Source: Bdellovibrionales bacterium
GTDB taxonomy: Bacteria > Bdellovibrionota > Bdellovibrionia > Bdellovibrionales > UBA1609
Assembly (NCBI GenBank): GCA_965261545.1
Contig: CBDHDF010000010.1
Span: 928,001 to 992,000, forward strand
Direction: 5' to 3'
Length of the DNA: 64,000 bases
Shown: piece after piece, positions 2,427 through 41,239 of the stretch
How the letters are laid out: the number at the start of each line of letters is the position of its first letter
Position numbering within the stretch: position 1 is the first letter of the stretch
Made by a program: the position numbers and the translations under genes
The notes under the pieces: generated by a model
Told to the model about the DNA's origin: nothing
Databases searched by the model: none
The model's input: the letters and a program-made list of their open reading frames with translations, nothing else

Positions 2427-2939
2427 TTACTGGGCAAAATTATAGATGTCTTTGTAATTTCTTCCGAGTTCATCGAAATCTAGTCCATAACCAATGACAA
2501 ATCGGTCTTCAATGGCCCTCCCAATGTAATCAGCTTTAATAGGCAACTCTCGGCGAGATGGTTTATCGAGGAGAGCTACAATTTTAAGGCTAGCAGGATG
2601 GGAGGCTAGAAGCCTTGTTCTTAAAAAATTGAGAGTGCGGCCGGCATCAATAATGCCTGCCACAACCAGAACATGTTGACCTGTAATATTGACGGAAATA
2701 TCCTTTAACATCCTAACATTGAACTTCTCTGCGGAGCAGAGATGTACAAAGTCAATGATCTGGGGCCTCTTTATCTTTTTCATCAAATCGGCACAAAATA
2801 TCACAGATCCCTTTAGAGGACAAATCACAACAAGCTCTTCCCCTTCGTAATCAGCCTCGATTTCTCGTGCTAATTTAGCAACAATTCTATTGAGTTCCTC
2901 AGATTTGATAAAAGGAATCATTTTATCTTTTAATTGCAT
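2427..2939 (-). CDS. hpt: Hypoxanthine phosphoribosyltransferase-like protein
   Basis: LKGSVIF.ADL, LLDKPSRR, FVIGYGLD; PRPP motif altered to VVAGIIDAGRTL. Confidence 0.85.
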   Translation of the reverse strand: MQLKDKMIPFIKSEELNRIVAKLAREIEADYEGEELVVICPLKGSVIFCADLMKKIKRPQIIDFVHLCSAEKFNVRMLKDISVNITGQHVLVVAGIIDAGRTLNFLRTRLLASHPASLKIVALLDKPSRRELPIKADYIGRAIEDRFVIGYGLDFDELGRNYKDIYNFAQ

Positions 2940-3008
2940 AAAAATGCCTCTACGTAGCAGCGCAATGGGGAAAGCCCCTATACCCATATAAGGTCATTGT
3001 TATTTACC

Positions 3009-3779
3009 TCATATCCTATAAGTATGTATCACATCTATAGATTGTGTCAGCCTTAAATATTCTTTTGCTTGATGATTATATGGATCACTCTGAAGCACTC
3101 GCTCCCACTGAAAAATCGCCTCAGGAACTTGATGAAAATCATAATAGAGTTTTCCAAGTTTCAAGCGTGCCTCAGAAAATTGAGGATATTTTTTACAAAG
3201 AACCCTTAAGAGATCCATGGCCCTTTCCTGATGACCCTCCTGAAGGTGACACTCAACAATCTTCAGCGTAATTTCGGCCTTACCCTTAGAAAGATTTAGG
3301 GCCTTCTCAAACTGTTCCAAGGCGTCAGTGAAGCCACTAGCTTGACAGTAAAGGTCTCCTAACTCCAAATGTTTGCTTAAAATATTTTCATTGAGCTTGG
3401 GGTCCACGGCCTTTCGCTGGCCAAGAATCGCTTGAGCCTTATGAAAAACCTTTTGCCCTTCCTCGTACCTTCCCAAGTCATTAAGGATAATACTCAACCC
3501 AATACTTGCATCCGTCAGTGAGGGATCTATTTCGAGGGCTCTTTTAAAAGTACGAATAGCTTTATTAAATTTTCCATGATTATAGTAAATAGTGCCAAGC
3601 ATATGAAAAACGAGAGCGTTCTTACAACCTCTTACAGCCATCTGGCTAAGAATCGGTTCAGCTTTGGCATAATCGTTGGCTTTAAAATATCTTTCAGCAC
3701 TTTCAAAGAGTTCATTTTCATTGGAAAACCTCTGGGAGATATTTTGTGGAGTCTCATTGATTGAGTTGCTATTGGTCAT
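3009..3779 (-). CDS. TPR repeat protein
   Basis: Multiple TPR-like repeats (LGTIYYNHGKFNKAIRTFKRALEIDP). Confidence 0.85.
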   Translation of the reverse strand: MTNSNSINETPQNISQRFSNENELFESAERYFKANDYAKAEPILSQMAVRGCKNALVFHMLGTIYYNHGKFNKAIRTFKRALEIDPSLTDASIGLSIILNDLGRYEEGQKVFHKAQAILGQRKAVDPKLNENILSKHLELGDLYCQASGFTDALEQFEKALNLSKGKAEITLKIVECHLQEGHQERAMDLLRVLCKKYPQFSEARLKLGKLYYDFHQVPEAIFQWERVLQSDPYNHQAKEYLRLTQSIDVIHTYRI

Positions 3780-5774: not shown

Positions 5775-6836
5775 CTACTTTGACCGGGCGAAATGCTGGG
5801 GGTTGAGTTCCACTCTGAAGCTAAAGGATAAGTAAATATACCCATCTTCTTCCACCATATCCTGGGGAGGGTTGACGAAAGGAGCGGCTTGCTCAAAGGC
5901 ATCTCGGGCAGCTTGGTCGAAAAATCTTTCTTGGGAGCTATGGACAACGATAGCTCCCATATATCTTCCTTGTTCATCGAGAATCACTTCCAAGGTTGTT
6001 ACTCTGGGGATTCTCGCCATCCTTTGAAGTCTATGGGGGGGAGACCCACGGATAATCTCCCTAAGTAGGTGGATCCAGCGAGGGCGCAACTGCTCCTGTA
6101 GTCTCATGTGAAAGGTGTAATACTCCAGCGAGCCCTTATCTGTATTGAGAGCTGTTATATCGGCCATTTGAATATGGGGATGATGGATGGAGGCGGAGGG
6201 TGGGTGGACGCGAAAATTCAAGAGTCCAGGTGGGGTGATTACAAAGACTTTGCTTTCATCTGACTTCTTTTTTTGCCTTTTGTTTTTCTTTTCTACAGTA
6301 AGCCCCTTTGTCGGCCGCTCCCCTGTTGGTTGCAAGTTGAACTGTAAATTTTCAAGGCTGAGCCATTGTTTAAGATTTTGGTTCGTCAATAAATCGCTCT
6401 TTTTATTTTGAGCAGAAGGAGGGGCCTTGGAGGAGTTTTGGTTGGGGCCATTGAGCCTTGCCAATGTTTCTTTGCGGACACGACGAGCTGTTTTGGATAA
6501 AAGGGGAACCCTCTTTGTGAGACGGTTTGGGAGCTTATCATCAACCTCAGGGTCTTTAATGTAAAATCTTTTTGTATTTTTATCCTTAAAACGAATTTCC
6601 ACCTCCGTAACTTTTAGGGGAGGCCATGGGTTCTTGTGGGGAATAAAGGCCCCCACGAAAGCATGTTTCATAATGAGAACCAGCCCTAGGTGGAGCAAGA
6701 AGCTCACAAGAAGGGGAAAAATCAAAGTAAGTATTTGTAAACAGGAGGCTTTTTTGCAAATTATAAAAAACTTCTTACCATTCATTAAAGGTTTTAAAGG
6801 CTTCCTCTCATTTAAAGGGTCATTTAAAGGGTTCAC
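5775..6836 (-). CDS. TonB C-terminal domain protein
   Basis: TM with SFLLHL; C-terminal SS..FFDQAARDAFEQAAPFVNPP. Confidence 0.8.
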   Translation of the reverse strand: MNPLNDPLNERKPLKPLMNGKKFFIICKKASCLQILTLIFPLLVSFLLHLGLVLIMKHAFVGAFIPHKNPWPPLKVTEVEIRFKDKNTKRFYIKDPEVDDKLPNRLTKRVPLLSKTARRVRKETLARLNGPNQNSSKAPPSAQNKKSDLLTNQNLKQWLSLENLQFNLQPTGERPTKGLTVEKKNKRQKKKSDESKVFVITPPGLLNFRVHPPSASIHHPHIQMADITALNTDKGSLEYYTFHMRLQEQLRPRWIHLLREIIRGSPPHRLQRMARIPRVTTLEVILDEQGRYMGAIVVHSSQERFFDQAARDAFEQAAPFVNPPQDMVEEDGYIYLSFSFRVELNPQHFARSK

Positions 6837-6861
6837 TTCAACATTATATCACAATTCCGAC

Positions 6862-6888
6862 TAAAGTTGAGACATTTTCTACCGATAA
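6862..6888 (+). promoter_or_regulatory. Sigma28 (FliA) promoter candidate
   Basis: TAAA-N15-ACCGATAA upstream of the PilZ gene. Confidence 0.65.
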
Positions 6889-6939
6889 GTTTATTATGAA
6901 TTCATCTGTCGCCTTGGGGGGAGTTCAGGGAAAAATGGG

Positions 6940-7638
6940 GTGGGAAAAATGTATAAAGATAACTTGTTAGATCTCAATAAGTTTAGGAAGAAAAATAGGC
7001 TTGATAAAGAAAGTGGCAAAGAACCACAGCAAATGGTCGCCATGGGGCCGACCCAAGAAAACCCACTTTCTTCCCCGAAAATCAAAACCACTGCGCCGCC
7101 AAAGGCTGTTGGGTCGTCCACGGTGGCGGCAGCGGCACCATCCATTCCTGTTGGGCCGGAGGCTATGCAGTCTACCGTTAATTTCTCCGTGGAAAGGCCC
7201 ATAGAACCCATAGATATGACGGAGCGCCGTCAGAAAATTCTTAGCGATGAGAGGCGGCGTGCAAAAAGGACGATTCTTACTGAGTTTATTACAGCTTATA
7301 TTGTCATTCCCCAAAAGGGCCTACAAAATGTCATACTTTACGATATTTCAGAACAAGGATTGTCTTTTGATTTGGATATAGAATTTGGAGTTTTTAAGGT
7401 CCAAGAAGAGCTTGCCATGAGAGTTTATTTGCATCACCAAACCTACTTTCCATTTTCGGTGAGGGTGACCAACTTAAGATCCATAGAACTAGAGGGAGTA
7501 AGTCGTGTGGGAGTGCGCTTTATGGCAGGCGAGACAAACACCTTAGCCCTTCAGCACTTTGTGAATTTTATTGAAACTGTGAGCTTGAGCTTACAAAGTG
7601 ACTCAGGTGATATCCTTGTTACTAATATCAAAGAGTGA
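6940..7638 (+). CDS. PilZ domain protein
   Basis: ERRRAKR (RxxxR) and DISEQG (DxSxxG). Confidence 0.85.
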   Translation: MGKMYKDNLLDLNKFRKKNRLDKESGKEPQQMVAMGPTQENPLSSPKIKTTAPPKAVGSSTVAAAAPSIPVGPEAMQSTVNFSVERPIEPIDMTERRQKILSDERRRAKRTILTEFITAYIVIPQKGLQNVILYDISEQGLSFDLDIEFGVFKVQEELAMRVYLHHQTYFPFSVRVTNLRSIELEGVSRVGVRFMAGETNTLALQHFVNFIETVSLSLQSDSGDILVTNIKE

Positions 7639-27610: not shown

Positions 27611-30164
27611 CAATGGCATTCGTTTTTGCAGAAGGTTTTTCCACATTTTTCTGACTCCCTCTAACATACTGAGTTAAGGGGGCTTTTATCTTTTTTCTTT
27701 TTCCGAAAAAAAATACTTGAGTCCACCCCATCGTTGTGTCACATTATATTTGAACCATTCCCAAAGGGGAGAGACTCAAATGGACCCACGCATAGAGACA
27801 TTGCCTTCAACAACTTTTTTTGGAAGACGCTTGACGCGCAAGCAAATTGCCGACATTCAAAAGACGGTGGCGCTATTTCCTTCTTTAAGTCGCCGTGAAC
27901 TGGGTTATACAGTTTGTGAGCATCTTGGTTGGCTAACTCCCAAAGGTGATCATCGCATCCAATCGTGCCTTCGTATGCTTGAGACGCTAGAGGAACTTGA
28001 CATTCTATCCCTGCCAGAAAAAGACATGTCAAAGCGGAGTGTCCCCTCCAAAAAAATCACTTGGACACACCGAACAGATGAAAAGCCTCTCATCAACGAT
28101 AAACTAGACTCATTGACCCCACTTTCTTTGCAAATCGTAACTGATCAAGAGGCCATTAAGGAATGGAATGAAGTTGTCGATCGGCATCATTATCTCAATT
28201 ACAGACGTCCCTTTGGTCCCCATTTGCGCTATTTCATCCTAGATAATTGTGGGCGACGATTGGGTTGTCTTTTATTTGAAGCTGGCACATCCACTTTGCC
28301 TTGCCGTGATGAATGGATCGGTTGGCAAAATCGAGCTTACAAAAAGCACTTGAATTTAGTGGTGAACAATAGTCGATTTTTGATCTTTCCCTGGGTAAAG
28401 GTTCGCCATCTTGCTTCGATGGCTTTATCTATGGCAACTCGCCAACTTCCCACAGACTGGGAGTTAAAACATGCTTTCAAACCTGTACTCATGGAGACTT
28501 TTGTCGACCTTACCAAATTTAATGCCACGAGCTATCGTGCTGCCAACTGGCTTTATTTGGGCAAAACAAATGGGAGTCGTGCCTACAAAAATGTAAAGGG
28601 AAAAACTCAAAAAGGTGTTTATGTTCAACCTCTGACAAAGAATTATCAGTCTATCTTATTGAATGGCCCCCAATGCGCTATCAAGAAACCCGTCGGGAAA
28701 CCCACCATCAAGCCACATAAGAACTTGGCTGAGCCTATGCTAGAGGACTCTTTTGTGCATCTTTGGCAAAACATCATCAAGACAGTGGTTATCATTGCAG
28801 ATGAGTACGACCGAACCTGGCAAAAGCGTCAACGTGTCTTGAATACATTGTTGATTATACTTTTCATCTTCCGACTTGTTTTCTCTAAAGGAAAACAAGG
28901 TTATGATACAACTTTGATTGAACTTTGGGAGCAGTGTCGCATATTAGACATTGAACTCCCTCAACCTAAACCAGTTCGGGCATCCACTATGTGTAGTGCA
29001 CGGGCTAAAGTAGATGAAAATATATTTAAAGTTTTGCATGATGAAATTCTTAAACAAGACGGTATATCCAATTCTAGTACCTTATGGAAGGGCCATAAGG
29101 TTTTCGCAGTGGATGGATCGAAAATAAATTTACCACGTCAACTCGTAGATAATGGGTATCAGCAACCATGGGAAAAAGCATGGTACCCTCAAGGTCTTGT
29201 CAGTTGCCTGTACCAACTACAGTCGAAGATTCCTGTGGATTTTGATCTCTTTGCCCATAACAATGAGAGAAAGGCTGCACAAACTCATTTCAAAAAATTG
29301 TTTGAAAACGATGTTGTGGTTTATGATCGTGGCTATTATTCCTACGAAATGCTTCATGAGCATAAGGTGCGAAGTCTGCATGCGGTGTTTAGGATAAGGA
29401 GAAATGCCAACACTGTTTTTGATGAATTTATTAATAATGATCAAAAAGACTCAGTGATCCAAGTCATTCCTAGCAAGCAAATTCTGAAAGAACTACATAA
29501 AAAAAAGCCACAAGACGACTTCAAAGCCTACGCTTTGCGTTTGGTCAAATATAAAATTGGACAAACTACTTTTGTTCTAGGAACAACCTTAATGGATCAA
29601 AAAAAATATTCCATTGATGATCTGGCCAATCTCTATCATGGACGCTGGAGTATAGAGGAACTGTACAAAATATCCAAAGAACTGATGACCATTGAAGAGT
29701 TTCATTCTCAAAGTGAAAGGGGAGTCAAACAAGAATTGTTTGCACACTTCACACTTATCACTCTGACAAGATTATTTTCCAACTACACGGAAGACCGTCT
29801 TAATACATCTCAATCCCATAGTAAAAAACAAACCATGCAGACAAACTTTAAAAACAATTTACTGACAATTGCAAGAAATATTGAAGGTCTTTTTCTTCAA
29901 CAAAAGGTAGTGCTTAGTAAAACCCTCAATTGCATCATTACAAATATGAAGACCTGCCGACAAAGGCTACGTCCGAATAGGCATTACGACCGAGTTTCTA
30001 GAAAACCCATCGGAGTATGGAGACCCAGTAAAGAGGTTAGGGGGGCTATGGCCAACGGATAATCACATGGATCAAAGAAAAAAACTTGGGGTTAGCCCAC
30101 CCCCGAGGAGTTAGAGGTTCAAATCCTTAACCGAATGGGATCTCTCACTAAACGAATGCCATTG
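27611..30164 (+). mobile_element. IS4-like element, 2554 bp
   Basis: 15-bp TIR CAATGGCATTCGTTT (27611-27625 / 30150-30164); 10-bp TSD CCTCTTCATG (27601-27610 / 30165-30174). Confidence 0.95.
27780..30062 (+). CDS. DUF4338 (DruA-like) domain fused to IS4-family DDE transposase
   Basis: N-half HHYL.Y, RDEWIGW, NNSRFLIFPWV, ETFVD..YRAANW.YLG.T; C-half AVDGS, YDRGYYS, YHGRWSIEELYK. Confidence 0.88.
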   Translation: MDPRIETLPSTTFFGRRLTRKQIADIQKTVALFPSLSRRELGYTVCEHLGWLTPKGDHRIQSCLRMLETLEELDILSLPEKDMSKRSVPSKKITWTHRTDEKPLINDKLDSLTPLSLQIVTDQEAIKEWNEVVDRHHYLNYRRPFGPHLRYFILDNCGRRLGCLLFEAGTSTLPCRDEWIGWQNRAYKKHLNLVVNNSRFLIFPWVKVRHLASMALSMATRQLPTDWELKHAFKPVLMETFVDLTKFNATSYRAANWLYLGKTNGSRAYKNVKGKTQKGVYVQPLTKNYQSILLNGPQCAIKKPVGKPTIKPHKNLAEPMLEDSFVHLWQNIIKTVVIIADEYDRTWQKRQRVLNTLLIILFIFRLVFSKGKQGYDTTLIELWEQCRILDIELPQPKPVRASTMCSARAKVDENIFKVLHDEILKQDGISNSSTLWKGHKVFAVDGSKINLPRQLVDNGYQQPWEKAWYPQGLVSCLYQLQSKIPVDFDLFAHNNERKAAQTHFKKLFENDVVVYDRGYYSYEMLHEHKVRSLHAVFRIRRNANTVFDEFINNDQKDSVIQVIPSKQILKELHKKKPQDDFKAYALRLVKYKIGQTTFVLGTTLMDQKKYSIDDLANLYHGRWSIEELYKISKELMTIEEFHSQSERGVKQELFAHFTLITLTRLFSNYTEDRLNTSQSHSKKQTMQTNFKNNLLTIARNIEGLFLQQKVVLSKTLNCIITNMKTCRQRLRPNRHYDRVSRKPIGVWRPSKEVRGAMANG

Positions 30165-30899
30165 CCTCTTCATGGGCTGTGTCGATCTGTGACAAACGAT
30201 CTCGACGCTGCTTATCTTCAGCTTCAAGTCGCTCTCGCATGAGTTCGTCTTGAGACAAATTCCACAAATTTTTGACGGCTCTTCCCATGTCCCTTCCTTT
30301 TTTGGCTAGCTCTTGACTGGTTTGTTGATTCAGCTCATCCGATCTCTTTAAGAAATAGCACCACGCTTCACGCTGGTCAACAAGGCTGTCTAATCTGCCA
30401 ATGAACTTGTTCAATTCTACAATGACAAATTGCATACCATCGGTGAGTCTCAAATGAGGGTATCTATCCTGCCTCATGCTGCATGTGTGGTAATAATCGT
30501 TGTCCTTGCGTAGCTCAGGAAGGTCCACAGTACTGAAAACAAGGGAGTAAACAGTCTTAATTTCTCGTATTTTTCTCCTTCTTTCACTTGATTGGAGTAG
30601 ACCCGTCCCGCATAGGCAAGAAGGCGATTTGTAAAGTCTCTTTGGGAGACGGTTTGCATTTCCACGTTCACAGTTTCATTTTCAACCCATTCCCCACTGG
30701 ATAATTGTCGAGAGCAGCCCGGAGGGCCGCAGAGAGAACTCTCCTCGGTATATCTCGTGGAGCATCTTGCATACTTTGTTGATTTTCTTGAAAAAACTAA
30801 ACCCTTTATATCTCTTATATTCCATAATTTCCCTCTCCTTATATTATCCCTCTTATTAAAAGTGTCTCATAACGATTTCGCATAGTATAGGGTTGCTGC

Positions 30900-31456
30900 G
30901 GCTTTACTCTCACATCAACTCTTATGGCGGTTGGCATCGCCTCGCTCACACTTATGGCCGTGCTGGGCATGATTAATTTTCAACAAATTGAAGGCAAAGC
31001 CATCAATCAACAACTTGCACGTGCTTCCTTAAAATACAACATCTTACAAACCCTTAAAAACCCCCAAAACTGCCTCTGCCAATTTAATGACTTAGCCTCT
31101 CCACCTCACACCATTGATACCACAAAAACGGCCCAAGGAACTCCTGGGTATGAAATCGACCTTGGAATCTTTAGAAGTGGTTGCTCGGATAGCTCTGACG
31201 ATAATATTTTAGCCAAAGAAAACGAAATTATCAGGGGAAGCGCTGGAATATCAGCTCTCACTGTGAAAGTCTCAGGCATTTTAGATACAGAAACGAGCAA
31301 TGAGTTTTTAGGGGATTTGACCATACCATTTAAAGAAGAGGGGCTCGTCCGTATCATGAAAAATCTAACGGTTCCGATATGTATCAACAGCAGTAATAAT
31401 GCATGCTCCGCCGAGGGCTCTTGCTCTAGACTTGGACGCAGAAAATTAGTTAGTTG
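30900..31456 (+). pseudogene. Prepilin/pseudopilin-like gene remnant, interrupted by IS
   Basis: In-frame GFTLTSTLMAVGIASL just downstream of TAG (30888); 3' end cut by the IS at 31457. Confidence 0.6.
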
Positions 31457-33355
31457 CCTGAAATCCCTAAAAGTTGTAACTAGGTTTAATGTATTGCGTT
31501 AACTTTCCTCTCTTCCTATGGAATTGGCTGCTGTCAACGGTTTGAGAGGTTTAATAGTATTAATATATTTAATATGATTCATAAGAATTTGCTGCGAAAG
31601 GTCCTCTTCGTCTCCATTGGATAGATGAGGCATAGTGGTAGCCACAGCCACCGTCACATTTGAAACAGATAAAAAACATCATTTTGTCTTGGGAAGCCCA
31701 TCTATGTGGAAGGCTGAAAAAATATCCTTTTGTTTTTTAGACAGCTCTCCAAGCATCAGATCACCTGTAGCTAATTCATAAAATTTTAATCGGTCCATCA
31801 TTTTGTAAATTTCTATTTTAGACATTTTTTTATATAACTTCTTATCTTTCATAACAGTATCAATATGTGAAATTAAAATTAAAGAGAGAAAATTAATAAA
31901 GATGCTTCCCCTCATATTCATGAGAGAATGAACTCGACTTCTCCTTCCATTAATATCATGCTTGAATGAGAAAAATACTTTCTCAATGATATCTTTGTTT
32001 CGATATAAACTCAATATATCTGTTTTCTTTAAATCATGACTATTTGTAATTAATATCATAATACCCAGCGTAGAAGATTCTTCATTAATATTTTCTTCAT
32101 TTAAAGAAATCTTAAATGGAGTGCAATCAGAGATATTGAGAAACCTTTTTTTATTTCCTAAAGTTTCTTTCATATAGGAACTAGCTTGTTCTTCTGATTT
32201 CAAATCTTTCTCAAGAAAGAGTTTCATAAAATCAAGCAACTCTTTCATTAACACAGATTCCTCATAAACCCTTCTTTCTTTGTCTAAGAAAATATGAGCC
32301 GTACAATCAAATCCTCCGATTTTTATTGATTCTTTGCAATGCGAATAAATTTCCTCATTAAAAGTAAAAGAGCATGATGGAGATTTTATTTTCTCATTTA
32401 AAGCCACAGCAAGCTCTCTTGAGAGTTTTGTTCTAAAACTCATGGGTATCAAATACTTCAATTCCTTACGATGCAGTCCCTTAATATTTTCTACACTAGA
32501 AAAACCCTTATCCATAACTAAACAATCTAAATCTAATTTATAACTTGTTATGATCTCAATAATATTCGATAAAGTTTTGACATCCGGTATACTTCCAGGA
32601 TAGATTCTGTACGCTATAGGCGTATGAGTTTTATTGTCTTCAGATTTCCTACTTATCAGACCTAAGTTTATCTGTTCGAGATTCTCTCCATCTCTGTTGT
32701 AACCTTTCTCTAAAAATTCATTATTCATAGAGTAGGAAGAAAAGGATGTGATGTCAAACATTACCGTACCAGAACCCTTCACTTGACTTATCCATTCGCT
32801 AAAGAAAGATTCTATCTTTTTTTGATCTCTCCCAAGATCACATAAGAGATTGCTTATTTTTTGTGACGACATAAAATTTTTCTTTGAAACATAAGCTTCT
32901 TGACACCACATATCGTAAAGATAAAAGGGCTCTCTTTTGATTATTTTAAAAAAAGCTAAATGCAAATAATGTTCGTAATTATCTGGATAAATTTTAGACA
33001 ATGTTTTTAGAAGATTTAGTTGTTCGCATATTTTCTCTAAGAAAAATAAGGCTCCCACATTATAGGAGCCTATGGGAATCTTTTTTCTTTTGGTCTTAAT
33101 TTGACCTGTAAACTCATCCTTTCTTCCAAGGTAGATGCGTTTTTGCCTGGCCTGCTTTTTTTCCTTGTCCCAAAAGCTTTCAACTTTATAGACATAGGTT
33201 TTTCCCTTATTTTTTTGCTCAAAAGTGTATGACATCGTTAATATTGTAACTATGCTTTTGAAGAGATGACAATCTCTTAATCAAAGTGAAGGCCTTCTCA
33301 GACAATAATCAGGACTTAAGCCCTACACCTAGTTACAACTTTTAGGGATTTCAGG
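31457..33355 (-). mobile_element. IS1634-family element A, 1899 bp
   Basis: 29-bp TIR CCTGAAATCCCTAAAAGTTGTAACTAGGT; 6-bp TSD TAGTTG (31451-31456 / 33356-33361). Confidence 0.95.
31679..33235 (-). CDS. IS1634-family transposase
   Basis: YVY.VES.WDKEKKQARQKR.YLG, FDITSFSSYS, GYNRDG..QINLG, MDKGF, YRNKD.IEK.F. Confidence 0.92.
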   Translation of the reverse strand: MSYTFEQKNKGKTYVYKVESFWDKEKKQARQKRIYLGRKDEFTGQIKTKRKKIPIGSYNVGALFFLEKICEQLNLLKTLSKIYPDNYEHYLHLAFFKIIKREPFYLYDMWCQEAYVSKKNFMSSQKISNLLCDLGRDQKKIESFFSEWISQVKGSGTVMFDITSFSSYSMNNEFLEKGYNRDGENLEQINLGLISRKSEDNKTHTPIAYRIYPGSIPDVKTLSNIIEIITSYKLDLDCLVMDKGFSSVENIKGLHRKELKYLIPMSFRTKLSRELAVALNEKIKSPSCSFTFNEEIYSHCKESIKIGGFDCTAHIFLDKERRVYEESVLMKELLDFMKLFLEKDLKSEEQASSYMKETLGNKKRFLNISDCTPFKISLNEENINEESSTLGIMILITNSHDLKKTDILSLYRNKDIIEKVFFSFKHDINGRRSRVHSLMNMRGSIFINFLSLILISHIDTVMKDKKLYKKMSKIEIYKMMDRLKFYELATGDLMLGELSKKQKDIFSAFHIDGLPKTK

Positions 33356-33363
33356 TAGTTGGT
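32955..33363. repeat. 409-bp direct repeat, copy 1 (left flank of IS B)
   Basis: Identical by eye to 35277-35685. Confidence 0.93.
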
Positions 33364-35276
33364 CCCGAGTTTGACAGCAGCATCTGCGTCAAACGAATGA
33401 TATTAAAGGATTAACGCATATAGTTGTATTTTGTTTATCCACACTTGTGGGCATTAAGGATTCTGGGAGGGATGGGGACGCCTGCGGCTTTAAATAAGGA
33501 GTTGGCATTGCCAGTGATATCTGTGCGGGTCCAAATGACTTGATCACGAATTTTAACAGGGATAGCCCTAACTTCCTTGAGTTCCCTCATGGCCTCTACA
33601 ACAGTTAAAGGTCGCTCTTTAACATGACCAATGCCTATGGCTGGGCTTTTTAGGTTCATCTTCTTATCTCTTAAACATTTTGTAAGGTGGGCCTCACAAA
33701 GATAAGTTAAAAAGCATAGAGTTAAATGTCCAATAATCCTCTGGTCTGTCCAATGGAAAACAGGACGTGTTTTCAAAGTCCCTTTTAACTCACCAAAAGC
33801 ATCTTCAATTTTCCACAATTCTTTGTAGTTGATAATAATCTCATCTGCCGTCAAGTCTTTGACATTTGTAAGGACGGCAAAAAAACCATCAATTTTTTCA
33901 TCTAATTCTATTTGTTCTGCATTTAATTCAGGTTTTTTATTTTTGTCGTCAGCCATCTTTACATATTTCTTATAACCTTTATTGGAAACAAAAGTACTAG
34001 ACTGAACACCTTTAGAAGATAGTTTTCCTTCGATCTTTTCAAGAAGGGATTCTCTAGATTTTTTATCCCTCTCTGCTCTTTTCCTAGACCAAGTCACAAT
34101 ACATCTATGCCCCCCATGGTCTGTTTCGTAAACAGCAAGCTCATTCTCATATACCCAGCTAAAACGATTTAAATCATAGACCTCTTGTTTCTTTTCTTTT
34201 TTTAAAGATCCAAGCTTCATACCAACAATAAACTCGCTTTGATCCTCACTGAGTTTGTCAGTATTAGCCTTTGATAAAAGCCCCCTATCAGCCACAAAAA
34301 TGAAACGGCGTACATTAAACTTTTTTCTCATTTTATCAACAATATCTGAAAGCGTCTTGCCTTCAAAAGTATTACCAGGGAAAACCTCAAAACCTAAAGG
34401 GATGCCATCCCGATTCACCAACAAACCAAAGACAACTTGGGTGCAGTCTGATCGTCTCTCTTTACTATAGCCAAATTGACGAAGTTTCCCTAAGTCTGTT
34501 CTTGTACTCTCGAAGCGTAAGGTTGTTAAATCATACAACACAATGTCTACTTGGAAATTAAATAAATCTCGCCCCACCCAATAAAGCGAGTTCTCTATTT
34601 CATCCTTATGGGAGGCAAGTAAGTCCATAGACCGATAAATATGCTGGAGACTCAAATCACCCTTAATCATGTCTGGGTAAAAAGATTTTTGCCAATACTC
34701 AAAAACCTTTAACTTGGAACTAGGAGCAATAAATCGGATGGCAACTAAGGTAAAAATCACCTTACATAAATCAAATTGAACTTTCTCATGAGAATCTTTT
34801 ATGTCTTTGAGGGTCTTATTGATACCCAGTTGATCAAACAACTTTTGTAAAATCAGCAAGGGACCCAAAATGAAAGTCTCTTCGATGTAAAGCTCCTTAG
34901 CCAATTGACTCACAGTGAGAAGCTCTCGGTGGCGGGATACGGCCTGCGCCAAACTATTAATCTTATCCTCTCCTCCTTCTCCAGCCTTACCTAAGGACAT
35001 GAGCATGCGTTTTTTGGATTTGCCTTTTTCTCTGTAGGACTCCACAAGGTGGTAGTAGCACTGACCTTTTGAGTTTTTAGTCGTTTGGATGTACATGAGG
35101 ATATTTTCTACATATTTCTATGATATATCAATATTTAAAACGATAAAATCCTATTTTGTTTTCTACACTTTTTTTACGTCAATTTTAATTTTTCCAGCAG
35201 CTACCATTATATTTCAGTACAACCCCAATTTCTGGAAATTTCGCATTTTAACGCAGATGCTGCTGTCAAACTCGGG
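33364..35276 (-). mobile_element. IS1634-family element B, 1913 bp, flanked by 409-bp direct repeats
   Basis: 26-bp TIR CCCGAGTTTGACAGCAGCATCTGCGT (33364-33389 / 35251-35276). Confidence 0.95.
33435..35096 (-). CDS. IS1634-family transposase
   Basis: LVESYRE.GK, YDLTTLRFE, FGYSKERRSD..QV, VADRGL, YK.LWKIEDAF..LK..L..RPVFHW. Confidence 0.93.
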   Translation of the reverse strand: MYIQTTKNSKGQCYYHLVESYREKGKSKKRMLMSLGKAGEGGEDKINSLAQAVSRHRELLTVSQLAKELYIEETFILGPLLILQKLFDQLGINKTLKDIKDSHEKVQFDLCKVIFTLVAIRFIAPSSKLKVFEYWQKSFYPDMIKGDLSLQHIYRSMDLLASHKDEIENSLYWVGRDLFNFQVDIVLYDLTTLRFESTRTDLGKLRQFGYSKERRSDCTQVVFGLLVNRDGIPLGFEVFPGNTFEGKTLSDIVDKMRKKFNVRRFIFVADRGLLSKANTDKLSEDQSEFIVGMKLGSLKKEKKQEVYDLNRFSWVYENELAVYETDHGGHRCIVTWSRKRAERDKKSRESLLEKIEGKLSSKGVQSSTFVSNKGYKKYVKMADDKNKKPELNAEQIELDEKIDGFFAVLTNVKDLTADEIIINYKELWKIEDAFGELKGTLKTRPVFHWTDQRIIGHLTLCFLTYLCEAHLTKCLRDKKMNLKSPAIGIGHVKERPLTVVEAMRELKEVRAIPVKIRDQVIWTRTDITGNANSLFKAAGVPIPPRILNAHKCG

Positions 35277-35685
35277 GCTAAATGCAAATAATGTTCGTAA
35301 TTATCTGGATAAATTTTAGACAATGTTTTTAGAAGATTTAGTTGTTCGCATATTTTCTCTAAGAAAAATAAGGCTCCCACATTATAGGAGCCTATGGGAA
35401 TCTTTTTTCTTTTGGTCTTAATTTGACCTGTAAACTCATCCTTTCTTCCAAGGTAGATGCGTTTTTGCCTGGCCTGCTTTTTTTCCTTGTCCCAAAAGCT
35501 TTCAACTTTATAGACATAGGTTTTTCCCTTATTTTTTTGCTCAAAAGTGTATGACATCGTTAATATTGTAACTATGCTTTTGAAGAGATGACAATCTCTT
35601 AATCAAAGTGAAGGCCTTCTCAGACAATAATCAGGACTTAAGCCCTACACCTAGTTACAACTTTTAGGGATTTCAGGTAGTTGGT
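35277..35685. repeat. 409-bp direct repeat, copy 2 (duplicated IS A end and transposase 5' fragment)
   Basis: Begins immediately after the IS B TIR; contains the IS A TIR ending at 35677 plus TAGTTGGT. Confidence 0.93.
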
Positions 35686-36010
35686 ACAACCCGTTCTTGC
35701 AGTCGGGATACTCCGCGTGGTGTACGTGTCGGTTATGTATATGGAGTTCTACCGGGGTTGCGATTAGAATGTGGCAGCCGTGATTCAAAATAGGCTGCAC
35801 GTGAAGGTTTGGCCGACCAACTTGTCCTGGGGCGTCATCAAAGGCTATGCAGGCGCGGCCGACATTAAAGGGCGGACATATGCTGTTCGAGAACTATACC
35901 AGCAAAGGCGCAATCACTCCTTCGAGTTGATTGGTGCTTCGTGCAAAGTGGGGGGCTAGATAAGATTCATGGGCGTGGGTGGGGAAGCAAGGCGCCCCCA
36001 TGAGTTACTA

Positions 36011-36484
36011 TTACCAATTATAATGGGCAAAAGCCTTATTGGCATCCGCCATACGATGAACATCGTCTTTTTTCTTAATGGAATTTCCTCGGTTATTGTA
36101 AGCATCCGCCAACTCATGGGCTAAGCGAGTTGACATGGATTTTTCTCCCCGCTCGCGAGCATAGGAAATAATCCACCTCATGGCCAAGGTTAAGCGACGA
36201 GCAGGCCGCACATCCACAGGAACTTGATAAGTCGCTCCACCCACACGACGTGAGCGCACCTCCAGAGAAGGCTTGCAGTTCTCAACAGCCTTCTTAAAAA
36301 CAGCCAATGGCTCTTCTACAGAAACCTTGCCTTTAAGCTCATCAAAAGCCGCATACAACAGCTTCTCAGCGGTGTTCTTTTTGCCACCGATCATAAGCTT
36401 GCGAATAAACCGAGCTACAGTCACATCGTTGTGAATGGGATCGGGATCCACTTCTCTTTTATAATTACCCTTACGCCTAGACAT
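36011..36484 (-). CDS. rpsG: 30S ribosomal protein S7
   Basis: [23 protein letters not shown]. Confidence 0.98.
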
Positions 36485-36528
36485 GAAACACTTATCCTTT
36501 TAAGAACCTTTTAAAAATTTTTTAAAAA

Positions 36529-36903
36529 CTATTCCTTGGGCCTTTTTGTACCATACTTTGAGCGGCTACGCTTACGATCATTCACCCCTTGGGTATCGAG
36601 AACTCCTCTCACGGTATGATAGCGCACACCAGGCAAGTCCTTCACTCGCCCCCCACGAATGAGAACCACACTATGCTCCTGAAGATTATGGCCAATGCCC
36701 GGTATATAGGAGTTGACCTCAAAATTATTGGACAGGCGCACACGAGCCACTTTTCTCAAAGCTGAATTCGGCTTCTTGGGCGTTGTGGTAAAAACGCGCG
36801 TGCAAACCCCTCGACGCTGAGGACATGCAGACAGTGCTGGAGACTTCGACTTTCCCTTCTGCAAAACCCGCTGTTTGCGAATCAACTGATTAATTGTTGG
36901 CAT
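36529..36903 (-). CDS. rpsL: 30S ribosomal protein S12
   Basis: [25 protein letters not shown]. Confidence 0.99.
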
Positions 36904-37090
36904 TCCAACACCTCACTCTATTTCTTGCGACCCAATTCATTTGCACTCCTCACTCATTGCAACTCTCAATTCTAAACGGCTTGCACTCCTCACTTCTGAT
37001 TCTTAATTTTTAATATTCTCAGCGCAAAGAAACTTCTCATCGCACTGAATTCTTATACCCTACCAAAGGCATTCGTCAACTCCTTCTTTA

Positions 37091-40000
37091 TCAACCCGGA
37101 GGAGAAGGGCTATGATCCGTCACAATTCCTGCCATACCCATGCCAGGCAGACCCACAATCGTCTCAGGCTCATCCTTTTCAACCACAACTTTCCAACGCT
37201 TGTAAACTGGGACCCCTGTTCCCGCAGGAATGAGGCGTCCCATAATAATATTCTCTTTAAGCCCCTTCAAATCATCAGACTTTGAATTAATAGCTGCTTC
37301 GGTAAGCACCTTGGTTGTCTCCTGAAAAGAAGCCGCTGAAATCCAACTATCTGTACTGAGAGCCACTTTCGTGATACCCAGCAAGAGAGGCTCTGAAGCC
37401 GCCAGTTGACCTCCCTCTCGAAGAACTCTTTCATTTTCTTCCTCAAAAACAAACCTCTCTACCTGCTCTCCTGCAATAAACTTGGTATCGCCAGCATCCG
37501 TCACAGTGATCTTTCGGAGCATCTGTCGAGCAATGACCTCAATATGCTTGTCGTTGATAGTCACACCCTGGAGACGATAGACCTCTTGAATCTCATTGAC
37601 CAAGTAGGAAGAAAGGGCCTCGTCCCCCAGTACCTTTAAAATATCATGGGGATTTGTCGATCCATCCATCAAAGCTTCACCAGGCTTAATAAATTCGCCT
37701 TCACGAACAGCAACCTGCTTGCCCTTGGGGATAAGATACTCCCGTTGCTCACCCATTTCAGGGGTGATAATCACCCTTTGCTTGCCCTTAACGTCTTGCC
37801 CAAAAGTCACATAGCCTTCAATTTCAGAGATAATGGCAGCTTCCTTGGGCTTTCTTGCCTCAAAAAGCTCAGCCACACGAGGGAGACCCCCTGTAATATC
37901 TTTAGTTTTTGAAGTTTCTCTGTAAATCTTAGCAATAACATCTCCAGCATGAACCTCAGCACCATGATCCACGAGAAGTTGGGCCCCCCAAGGAATGACA
38001 TAGCGAGCGGGAATGTCTCGCCCCGGTAAATTAAGAGGCTCGCCATTCTCATTATTGAGTATAACTGTGGGCTTCACATCAATCCCTTTATTTTCGGTAA
38101 TCACTCGCGTGGAAAAACCTGTCACCACATCCACCTGATGACTCAAGGTCATCCCTTCTTCAATGTCCTGGTACTCCACCGTGCCAGAAATATCTGCCAA
38201 AATCGGATTAGAGTAGGAGTCCCACTCAGCAATCTTGTCACCTTTTTTCACCGCATCACCATCTCTTACATTGAGAACAGCTCCGTAAATAATTTTATAG
38301 CGCTCTCTTTCTCTCTGGTGAATATCGTAAAGAACCATCTCTCCATTACGAGCCATGGCCGTAAGTTTTCCATGACGATTTTCTACAGTATGGACCCCCT
38401 CAAACTTAATCACCCCATCGGTACGCGCCGTATGCCCAGACTGCTCCACAGCCCTGGAAGCTGTTCCACCCAAGTGGAAGGTCCGCATCGTAAGCTGTGT
38501 CCCTGGCTCTCCAATAGACTGGGCTGCAATAATCCCCACAGCTTCTCCCAGGTTCACCATGTTTCCACGGGCCAAGTCTCTTCCATAACACTTTACACAA
38601 ACACCACGGCGAGTCTTGCAAGTCAGGGCTGAACGAATTTTGACTCGCTCAATTCCTAAACTATCAAATTTCTTACAAATTTTCTCATCAATTTCTTGGC
38701 CTGCTCCAAGAATCAACTCACCTGTGGAGGGGTCAGTAATATCCTCTAAAGCCGTCCGACCTAACACCCGATCCACAAGAGGTTGAATAATCTCTCCACC
38801 TTCCATAAGTGGCATCACCTCCATGCCTACTTCCGTGCCACAATTCACTTCATTGACGATAACATCTTGGGCAACATCCACAAGGCGACGAGTGAGATAA
38901 CCTGAGTTCGCTGTTTTAAGGGCTGTGTCCGCCAAACCCTTACGAGCTCCATGGGTAGAAATAAAATACTGAAGAACAGAAAGACCCTCACGAAAGTTCG
39001 CCGTAATGGGCGTCTCAATGATCTCTCCCGAAGGCTTCGCCATAAGGCCACGCATTCCCGCCAACTGACGAATCTGTGCGGCTGATCCACGCGCCCCCGA
39101 GTCAGCCATGACAAAAATAGGGTTAAAAGAATCTCTCTGCAATTCTTTGCCGCCTACCACGACCTTTTCGTACTCAATTTGGTTCATCATTTCTCTGGCC
39201 ACCTTATCTGCCGCCTGAGCCCAAATATCAACAACCCTGTTGTAGCGCTCCCCATCGGTGATAAACCCCTCATCGTACTGTTGCTGGATCTCGTAAACCT
39301 GGGACTCAGCACTATCGAGAAGAGCTTTCTTTTGGGAGGGAATAATCAAGTCGTCCACACAAATTGAGATTCCAGCCTGGGTGGAGTACTTAAAACCAAG
39401 CTGCATGAGCCTATCTGCAAGAATCACTGTCGCCTTAGCCCCTGCCAAGCGAAAAGATGTGTCAATAAAGTTGGCAAGAGCCTTTTTGTCCATCACTCTA
39501 TTCACAACCCCAAAGGGGACTCCATCAGGAACAATATCTCCTAAAATAGCCCTCCCTACAGAAGTGTCCTCCAAGTGCCCCTTCATTCTCACCTTAATGG
39601 CAGCCTGAAGATCCACTCGCCCCATATCATAGGTATAAAGCACCTCTTGAATATTGGAGAAAATACTCCCCGCCCCCTTAGCCCCTGGACGAATACGAGT
39701 CATCCAATAGGCACCTAACACAATATCCTGAGTGGGGTTAATCACAGGACGCCCATTGGCAGGACTCAAAACATTATTGGTAGACATCATTAAAACACGA
39801 GCCTCCACCTGAGCCTCCACAGACAATGGAACATGAACAGCCATTTGGTCACCGTCAAAGTCCGCATTAAAAGCTGTGCACACAAGCGGATGAAGCTGAA
39901 TGGCCTTGCCCTCGTGAAGCACAGGCTCAAATGCCTGAATTCCTAGTCTGTGAAGAGTGGGGGCGCGGTTGAGAAGAACGGGATGCTCTTTAACACACTC

Positions 40001-41239
40001 TGATAAAATATCCCAAACTTCCACTCCCTCCTTTTCCACAAGCCTTCTCGCTTGCTTAATTGTCGTTGCAAAGCCTCTTTCCTCAAGCTTATTGTAAATA
40101 AAAGGCTTAAAAAGTTCCAAAGCCATTTTCTTTGGAAGGCCACACTGGTGCAATCTTAAATAAGGCCCCACAACAATCACTGAGCGCCCGGAGTAGTCCA
40201 CACGCTTACCGAGAAGATTTTGACGAAACCGCCCCTGTTTCCCCTTAAGCATATCGCTCAAAGAGCGCAGAGGTCGCTTTGTTGGCCCTGTAAAAGTCTT
40301 GCCACGACGTCCATTATCAAGAAGTGCATCCACCGCTTCTTGAAGCATTCGCTTTTCGTTGCGAATAATAATATCTGGAGCATTGAGTTCACCTAAGCGC
40401 TTAAGGCGGTTATTCCTGTTAATCACACGACGATAGAGATCATTTAAATCCGAAGTGGCAAATCGCCCTCCATCCAAGGGAACAAGAGGCCTCAAATCAG
40501 GTGGAATCACAGGAACCACGTTAAGCATCATCCACTCAGGTTTATTGATAGAGCCTTTAAAAGCCTCAGCCACCTTCAACCTTTTGGAAAGCTTTTTAAC
40601 CTGGGCCTCCGACTTTGTTTCTTTGAGGTCCATACGAATACGACGAGATAAATATTCGATATCAACTTTTCTTAAAAGGCCAAGAATGGCCTCACCACCC
40701 ATAGCCGCCTTAAAGTTGGGACCAAATTCATTCAGAGCCTCCTGATAAGCACCCTCATCGAGAATCTGCCCCTCTTTTAAAGTTGTCTCCATGGGGTCAA
40801 TCACAGCATAGGACTCACAGTAGAGAACCTTTTCCACATCTTTGAGAGTCATATCTAAGAGGTTACCAATACGGCTTGGGAGAGAACGCAAAAACCAAAT
40901 ATGAGCAACAGGGCTGGCCAACTCAATATGCCCCATGCGACTTCTGCGAACCTTAGACTGGGTCACCTCAACACCACATTTTTCACAAATGACCCCACGA
41001 TACTTCATACGCTTGTACTTACCACACAAGCACTCATAATCTTTCACAGGGCCAAAGATTTTAGCACAAAAAAGTCCATCACGCTCAGGTTTAAAAGTTC
41101 TATAGTTAATGGTCTCTGGCTTTTTCACTTCTCCATGGGACCAGCTACGAATCAACTCTGGTGAAGCAAGTGATATACGAACCCCATTGAAAGAAAGAGG
41201 GTCTTTGGGCTTATCAAAAAAATTGAGTAAGTCTTTCAA
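37091..41239 (-). CDS. rpoC: RNA polymerase beta' subunit
   Basis: NADFDGD; TTG start. Confidence 0.99.

Follow-up and report, generated by a model that had tools for sequence, protein, structure and literature searches.

How does an insertion sequence (IS) come to be bracketed by perfect direct repeats of 409 bp? The question is raised by a 64,000-nucleotide stretch of DNA, referred to as the window, from a Bdellovibrionales bacterium (assembly GCA_965261545.1, contig CBDHDF010000010.1, positions 928,001 to 992,000), in which two neighbouring elements of the IS1634 family, here termed IS A and IS B, are followed by a stray end of the former (Table 1). It is very likely that the insertion of IS B duplicated 409 bp of its target, most probably by widely and variably spaced strand joining by its DDE transposase. 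A comparison of the two repeat copies, at 32955-33363 and 35277-35685, gives 409 identical positions out of 409, and a perfect repeat of this length cannot have arisen by chance. Leftward extension of the repeat is blocked, base 32954 being A and base 35276 G, and both copies abut the terminal inverted repeats (TIRs) of IS B without any separate short duplication. The ends of IS B, CCCGAGTTTGACAGCAGCATCTGCGT, are inverted-identical over 26 nt, or over 30 nt with one mismatch. A preliminary description of this DNA had placed IS B at 33364-35276, with 26-bp TIRs, between identical abutting 409-bp repeats and without a short target-site duplication, all of which is found at exactly these positions. 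Each repeat is composed of nucleotides 1499-1899 of IS A (401 bp), the 6-bp TAGTTG belonging to IS A and the dinucleotide GT, and the second copy matches IS A 1499-1899 at 100%. IS B therefore targeted the right end of IS A together with its flank, and what is found now is an entire IS A followed by IS B and by a stray IS A end of 401 bp. Although one of the IS B junctions falls within the IS A transposase gene, IS A is still complete because the duplication runs through its end.

Table 1. Features of the IS A and IS B locus, in positions of the window.
Feature	Position	Strand	Basis or remark
Left copy of the IS A 6-bp target duplication, TAGTTG	31451-31456		sequence
IS A, 1899 bp; 32-nt TIRs 31457-31488 and 33324-33355, 97% complementary	31457-33355	-	sequence
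IS A transposase gene, 518 aa	31679-33235	-	Pfam DDE_Tnp_1, NCBIfam NF033559
Left 409-bp copy: IS A nt 1499-1899, TAGTTG (33356-33361), GT	32955-33363		ends exactly at the IS B left TIR
IS B, 1913 bp; perfect 26-nt TIRs 33364-33389 and 35251-35276	33364-35276	-	sequence
IS B transposase gene, 553 aa, the sole open reading frame (ORF) of IS B	33435-35096	-	Pfam DDE_Tnp_1, NCBIfam NF033559
Right 409-bp copy: stray IS A end 35277-35677 (TIR 35646-35677), TAGTTG 35678-35683, GT	35277-35685		starts exactly at the IS B right TIR
Orphan 116-aa ORF: duplicated first codons of the IS A transposase, continuing into the IS B end	35207-35557	-	ORF list

The source genome (4.3 Mb in 11 contigs) is rich in insertion sequences and contains 22 full-length copies of IS B that are 99.7-100% identical, together with many partial or interrupted copies. 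Perfect abutting repeats were found at 17 of the 22 full-length copies, with lengths of 8, 37, 40, 53, 57, 64, 110, 125, 145, 175, 190, 219, 227, 241, 248, 322, and 409 bp, only one of them being shorter than 30 bp. When the flanks of all 38 left ends were compared with those of all 34 right ends, three more repeats (309, 291, and 188 bp) were found at copies interrupted by other elements, and a further four (231, 199, 177, and 247 bp) were split between different copies, as expected if IS B copies afterwards recombined with each other. The 231-bp and 199-bp duplications form a reciprocal pair, each being split between C4:136127-138039 and C10:1046050-1051998, and this exchange of flanks is the signature of homologous recombination between IS copies. 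No repeat was found within 3 kb at the remaining 5 of the 22 full-length copies; recombination explains two of these. At two further copies scored as repeat-less, the left repeat is truncated, the expected lengths being 275 and 256 bp. The preliminary description had considered that all other copies might prove to have short duplications, which is not the case, as repeats of 8-409 bp occur at 17 of 22 and seven more came from interrupted or flank-swapped copies. The working set is thus 24 repeats of 8-409 bp with a median of 189 bp. Three further pairings were dropped from it: C10:107588 left with C6:70472 right (83 bp), because the flank is a 61-copy repeat; C11:369696 left with C11:829073 right (188 of 190 positions), because of a second, near-identical flank; and C10:1074807 with C10:1073209 (1597 bp), because the same DNA lies between two adjacent copies.

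IS A behaves differently in the same cells. The 6-bp duplication that had been claimed for it is present at 20 of 20 full-length copies (99.6-100% identity), with a consensus near TAGCTA. Likewise, another IS1634-family member of this genome, type D, with the TIR CCTGAATTC, has 6-7-bp duplications at 4 of 4 copies. As IS A, of the same family and in the same host, always duplicates 6 bp, it is likely that the long-duplication trait belongs to the element, i.e., to its transposase or its ends, and not to the host.

Smaller elements are present as well. Derivatives resembling miniature inverted-repeat transposable elements occur at eight loci, where a left end (about 166 bp, 91%) and a right end (about 159 bp, 95-97.5%) of IS A type lie about 600 bp apart; C10:519965-520558 is an example of such a pair from an IS A relative. 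A single 587-bp non-coding element (C4:107893-108479) has IS B-type TIRs, CCCGAGTTTGACAGCAGC, but its interior does not resemble IS B. A perfect 17-bp repeat, with A as its first base and T as its last, lies on either side, and the element is probably non-autonomous and mobilized by the transposase of IS B.

Sites that IS B has not entered allow the repeats to be judged as target duplications. The 20 nearest genomes all belong to other genera and are only 65-71% identical even in ribosomal protein genes; as they are too distant, paralogous targets within the genome were used as empty sites. The pre-insertion target was rebuilt for each of the 24 insertions and searched against the source genome. 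In 9 of the 24 cases, where the target is itself a repeated element, other genome copies extend across both boundaries and contain the stretch a single time. In seven of the nine cases the copies are at least 99% identical, for the repeats of 227 bp (59 copies), 241 bp (13), 53 bp (61), 248 bp (36), 247 bp (17), 175 bp (1), and 291 bp (4). In the 248-bp case IS B had inserted into IS B, and its 36 uninterrupted copies serve as the empty sites. The remaining 15 of the 24 targets are unique in the genome; for the window copy, 27 matches span the left boundary and the right boundary is unique. Since uninterrupted paralogues hold the stretch only once, the repeats are true target duplications, i.e., IS B duplicates sequence that is single-copy in uninterrupted targets.

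The junctions follow a simple rule. If the ends of IS B are taken as CCCGAG...CTCGGG, T precedes the left end in all 22 full-length copies and A follows the right end in 21 of the 22. Counted per strand, the first duplicated base, which is joined to the 3' end of the element, is A in 46 of 48 IS B junctions, the two exceptions being G, in the window copy and in one other. Relatives of IS B from other genomes (see below) have A at 42 of 48 junctions. All eight non-A exceptions (two of IS B, six of relatives) are present in both copies of the repeat, showing that the junction base comes from the target and not from the element. A search for a motif beyond the junction A gave just a weak A/T preference at positions +2 to +5.

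On the basis of these junctions and repeats we infer staggered strand transfer with concerted joints, followed by fill-in. The DDE transposase would join one end of the element to each of the two target strands, at sites whose spacing is wide and variable; each strand transfer would be aimed 5' of an A, and the 5' stagger between them would vary. Both joints would presumably be made by one transposition complex, and host DNA synthesis would then fill two long single-strand gaps; fill-in over hundreds of base pairs would need strand displacement or a replisome and not simple gap repair. The preliminary description had envisaged cuts about 400 bp apart. Long duplication stands, while a spacing of about 400 bp does not, as lengths run from 8 to 409 bp around a median of 189 bp, and the staggered cutting itself is the presumed cause.

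The assignment of both elements to the IS1634 family, already made in the preliminary description, agrees with their transposases, both of which exceed the cut-off of 100 for NCBIfam NF033559 (383.3 bits for IS B and 225.9 bits for IS A); the next-best family, IS4, scores 40 and 33 bits, respectively, below the IS4 cut-off. Both proteins contain Pfam DDE_Tnp_1 and they are 22% identical to each other. Residues D189, D270, and E431 of the IS B transposase are invariant in 16 relatives, and in its motif Y424-x2-L427-x3-E431-x6-K438 the residues Y424, L427, E431, and K438 are invariant in 16 sequences; the corresponding motif of IS A is Y411-x2-K414-x3-E418-x6-K425. Both thus have the YREK motif without its Arg, as do most members of the family, the Arg being recorded in only 5 of 32 (De Palmenaer et al., 2008, PMC2266710). 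IS B (1913 bp, 553 aa) and IS A (1899 bp, 518 aa) each have a single long gene and fall within the size range of 1500-2000 bp tabulated for the family (PMC2266710). Family ends are described there as "only poorly conserved", with the terminal consensus C-----YT; the start of IS B, CCCGAGTT, fits it with C at position 1 and T at positions 7 and 8, and that of IS A, CCTGAAAT, at positions 1 and 8 only. The norm given for the family is an AT-rich target duplication of 5-6 bp, with IS1634 and IS1549 listed as exceptions (PMC2266710). IS B departs from this norm, with 23 of its 24 duplications being 37-409 bp and one 8 bp, and has instead long direct repeats that differ between copies of one element, as described for IS1634 and IS1549. 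Since the family description itself lists these exceptions, the long duplications do not exclude membership.

The trait extends beyond this genome. Of 7999 metagenome candidates that were scored, 1421 are relatives of the IS B transposase with E up to 0.001. The best of them, apart from the protein itself, are 70-74% identical, and the closest transposases are found in metagenome-assembled genomes (MAGs) of Bdellovibrionales; the nearest annotated family members, on plasmids of cultured organisms, are only 26-36% identical. A scan of one genome per species, mostly MAGs, gave 80 loci with relatives 52-75% identical to IS B, the ends of which were set by the shared TIR core. According to the records, their hosts include Bdellovibrionales, Rhabdochlamydiaceae, Bacteroidales, Prolixibacteraceae, and a delta-proteobacterium. 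Both ends were found for 63 elements, 40 of which have at least 600 bp of flank on each side. Abutting repeats of at least 7 bp were present in 21 of these 40, and of at least 30 bp in 19; the 21 lengths are 7, 12, 50, 66, 70, 76, 92, 94, 130, 246, 255, 305, 307, 415, 442, 531, 576, 779, 855, 1593, and 1666 bp. Among seven more copies with a variant right TIR, three have repeats (86, 145, and 156 bp). The repeats of relatives are perfect in 23 of 24 cases, and every one is shorter than its element (1835-1973 bp). The 1593-bp and 1666-bp repeats occur at full length exactly twice per genome, as the flanking pair only. In the former, at L097:2215-7353 of a Bdellovibrionales MAG, a complete 258-aa ORF is present in both copies (2768-3544 and 6314-7090). 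The suggestion in the preliminary description that such an element acts as a duplication engine is borne out by this relative, in which a whole 258-aa ORF was copied. In the source genome itself, a 1959-bp paralogue, IS B2, has the same TIR core and a transposase 65% identical to that of IS B; an intact copy (C11:909934-911892) has no repeat and an interrupted one (C10:322603-328362) has a 134-bp repeat, and in the few ends seen the flanks depart from the A/T rule.

A comparison of the two transposases by structure prediction had been proposed as a way to find what determines duplication length; the contrast between the elements is real, and the determinant did not emerge from it, as both models are Tn5-like. 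When profiles of the two clades were compared (16 sequences for IS B and 23 for IS A), the alignment covered 488 columns, nearly end to end, with 99.6% probability and 20% identity. IS B residues 36-72, approximately, lack an equivalent in IS A, and the model is of low confidence there; IS B further has a 13-residue insert near residue 484 relative to IS A. The AlphaFold model of the IS A transposase (mean predicted local distance difference test, pLDDT, 83.9) has Tn5 transposase 1muh_A as its best PDB match (E 2.5e-6, template modelling (TM) scores 0.41/0.45), and the model for IS B (pLDDT 74.9) matches Tn5 transposase 3ecp_A best (E 2.8e-5, TM 0.25/0.29); a sequence search of the PDB with the transposases gave no matches. 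As judged from these models the two proteins share one Tn5-like architecture. A candidate for the difference in duplication length is a C-terminal motif resembling a clamp-binding site. Another transposase of the family is described as binding the sliding clamp through a C-terminal Q-L-x-L-F (PMC4549789), and the aligned site reads Q-[KR]-x-[IL]-[FL] in 21 of 23 sequences of the IS A clade and A-x-x-L-F in 15 of 16 of the IS B clade, a correlation that may be relevant and that covers two clades only.

It is quite possible, if not quite probable, that IS B represents a clade of the IS1634 family that spans phyla and is marked by the TIR CCCGAGTTTGACA, found in Bdellovibrionales, Rhabdochlamydiaceae, Bacteroidales, Prolixibacteraceae, and delta-proteobacterial MAGs. 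Its members would make two spatially uncoupled strand transfers, each 5' of an A and 7 to about 1700 bp apart but never further than the length of the element, and would act as natural duplicators of segments and whole genes that often spare the gene they hit. As co-resident relatives with the same fold make 6-bp duplications, the determinant would, on the same tentative footing, be a subtle feature of the transposase or of the ends.

The structure in the window can be explained in other ways. On paper, the exact segment-IS-segment arrangement also results if two insertions of IS B with short or no duplications, one between IS A nt 1498 and 1499 and the other 8 bp past the IS A end, were present on sister or homologous chromosomes and a crossover took place within IS B. 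Recombination between IS B copies does occur in this genome, as the four split repeats illustrate. As a source of the repeats, however, it is extremely improbable: it needs two insertions in the same orientation within 8-409 bp of each other, followed by exchange, at 20 or more separate loci, it does not predict the A/T rule for the outer bases (46 of 48 junctions) together with perfect repeats, long repeats occur at 0 of 20 IS A copies in the same genome, and the same pattern recurs in unrelated assemblies. A false duplication next to a multi-copy repeat, introduced by the long-read assembler, is also very improbable. In its favour, insertion sequences are abundant in the genome, the assembly is in 11 contigs, and no single read or contig was seen to span 32955-35685. 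An assembly error, however, would not coincide with the element ends to the base at 24 loci while lengths vary and the A rule is kept; nor would it leave every one of the 20 IS A copies untouched or turn up again in independent assemblies of other organisms. Five public runs from two studies contain the stretch, all as short contigs that break at IS ends. Two contigs at single-copy depth are relevant here. One of 59 nt (depth 3.3) runs from the IS A end plus TAGTTGGT into IS B, with 33 and 26 nt per side, the latter below the 31-nt threshold; the other, of 335 nt (depth 4.07), runs from the second IS A end plus TAGTTGGT into the unique flank. Both are what a duplication predicts and, with only 26 nt on one side of the 59-nt contig, they lend it weak support; the runs may derive from the sample that gave the assembly. 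The second repeat copy shows no depth, contigs having been placed on the first copy. Depths in run X1 (136 for IS B, 79 for IS A, and 4 for the unique flank) agree with about 33 and 20 copies, respectively.

A different route to the same product is conceivable, to which only a small probability can be given. The two ends might join two sister duplexes behind a replication fork, or one end might be joined first and the second independently, so that no long duplex would need to be melted and refilled. This would suit the broad and unphased distribution of lengths. Furthermore, all 48 repeats as well as that of IS B2 are shorter than the element (at most 1666 bp versus 1953 bp), which fits a second end tethered by element DNA, and IS1634-family transposases are described as binding the sliding clamp via the C-terminal motif (PMC4549789), where the Gln of the motif is retained in the IS A clade (21 of 23), with Ala in its place in the IS B clade (15 of 16). 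On the other hand the motif difference is a correlation in two clades only, and independent joining should give deletions as often as duplications. Deletion-type insertions were sought among the repeat-less IS B copies and none was identified, although no close relative genome exists against which these copies could be tested. Staggered joining by the transposase has to be weighed against a number of observations that do not favour it. No repeat could be detected at two full-length copies (C6:191611 and C11:906423) or at several single ends, and the same applies to 19 of the 40 relatives with adequate flanks and 4 of the 7 with a variant right TIR. The repeat-less copies could be recombinants, deletion-type events or ordinary insertions, and a deletion type may hide among them. 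A fixed two-site complex that loops the target might have given helical phasing, and phasing of the repeat lengths was not significant (best Rayleigh z of 3.2 at 10.5 bp with 24 values, 2.7 with 27, and 2.4 with 48, for about 20 periods, uncorrected). No structural difference that explains the trait was found between the two transposases, and no domain was gained or lost, the profiles aligning end to end and both models being Tn5-like. Across the five runs no read or contig spans the whole 2.7-kb structure, and the copy in the window is that of the assembly. Finally, staggered strand transfer is here presumed from what appears to be its product.

That IS1634 and IS1549 make long variable duplications has been known since 1998-99. 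IS1634 of Mycoplasma mycoides subsp. mycoides SC was reportedly described by Vilei et al. in 1999, and IS1549 of Mycobacterium smegmatis is said to go back to Plikaytis et al. in 1998. Their repeats are given as 8-514 bp in the family survey of 2008, which, where it treats these two elements, states that no model had been proposed (PMC2266710); this agrees with the preliminary description, according to which a few members of the family make long repeats by an unresolved mechanism. No later model or survey of long duplications in the family was found in the literature searched. IS B resembles IS1634 and IS1549, as the latter are described in print, in belonging to the same NCBIfam family, in its long repeats that vary between copies, and in being an element of 1.5-2 kb with one DDE transposase. 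It differs in that its host is of an uncultured lineage and that repeats of its relatives reach 1666 bp, above the quoted 8-514 bp. Other members of the family have 6-bp duplications, namely ISGka5 of Geobacillus (PMC8024623), ISPfe2 of Paracoccus (PMC3281130), and IS1634-1 of Acidiphilium (PMC4549789), as reported in the respective accounts. These elements, as well as IS A and type D, share family and overall transposase architecture with IS B, but the TIR of the short-duplication members starts with CCTGAA whereas that of IS B starts with CCCGAG. Tn5/IS50 of the IS4 family is the best structural match of both transposases, with a DDE core and a motif of the Y-x2-x-x3-E-x6-K type. The Arg of YREK is, however, absent from IS A and IS B and the TM-scores are low (0.25-0.45), so that only the general fold is shared with Tn5 transposase. 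Moreover, the IS50 subgroup is tabulated with fixed 8-9-bp duplications (PMC2266710) and has a rigid two-end complex, while those of IS B vary. Long variable target duplications, from tens of base pairs to about 400 bp, are also reported for the insertion of restriction-modification genes in many bacteria (Furuta et al., 2010, PMC2853133). Such units have neither transposase nor TIRs and inserted in one-off events, in contrast to IS B, a multi-copy DDE element with TIRs that duplicated its targets repeatedly.

Long variable repeats as such were thus already described for IS1634 and IS1549, and IS B adds a data-rich member. What goes beyond the preliminary description is the A rule at the junctions, the presence of the trait in relatives of other phyla, and the Tn5-like architecture shared by the two transposases. 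A single genome holds 24 mapped insertions of a recently active IS B, with duplications of 8-409 bp, beside 20 insertions of IS A that are always of 6 bp, and this contrast within the same cells points to the element as the cause. IS A and IS B provide a pair of transposases and ends for swapping, and if the trait is indeed a property of a phylum-spanning clade, as tentatively proposed above, the 25-year-old question of the long repeats becomes open to experiment. Any model has to accommodate the A rule, which holds at about nine out of ten joints, and the occurrence of the trait in different phyla. Promoters and gene ends are duplicated by elements of this kind, as is an entire gene in one relative, and insertion into a gene need not destroy it: one intact copy was left in 11 of the 17 insertions in which an ORF of at least 100 aa is touched (mechanically called ORFs), IS A in the window being among such cases.

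The surroundings of the two elements offer some further observations. The orphan ORF at the right junction has no Pfam match, and no structured RNA was found in or beside IS A and IS B (0 Rfam matches in 30000-37200). The IS pair lies directly downstream of rpsG; rpoC, rpsL, and rpsG are found in their usual order at 36011-41239 on the minus strand. Just downstream of rpsG, at 35935-36012, is a repeat of about 80 bp that is present at 17 or more other sites of the genome with 88-93% identity and has no Rfam match. On the other side of the IS pair, a 781-aa ORF (27717-30062, plus strand) combines a DruA (Druantia) domain (E 1.4e-35) with DDE_Tnp_1 (E 7.6e-21), which is an unusual pairing.

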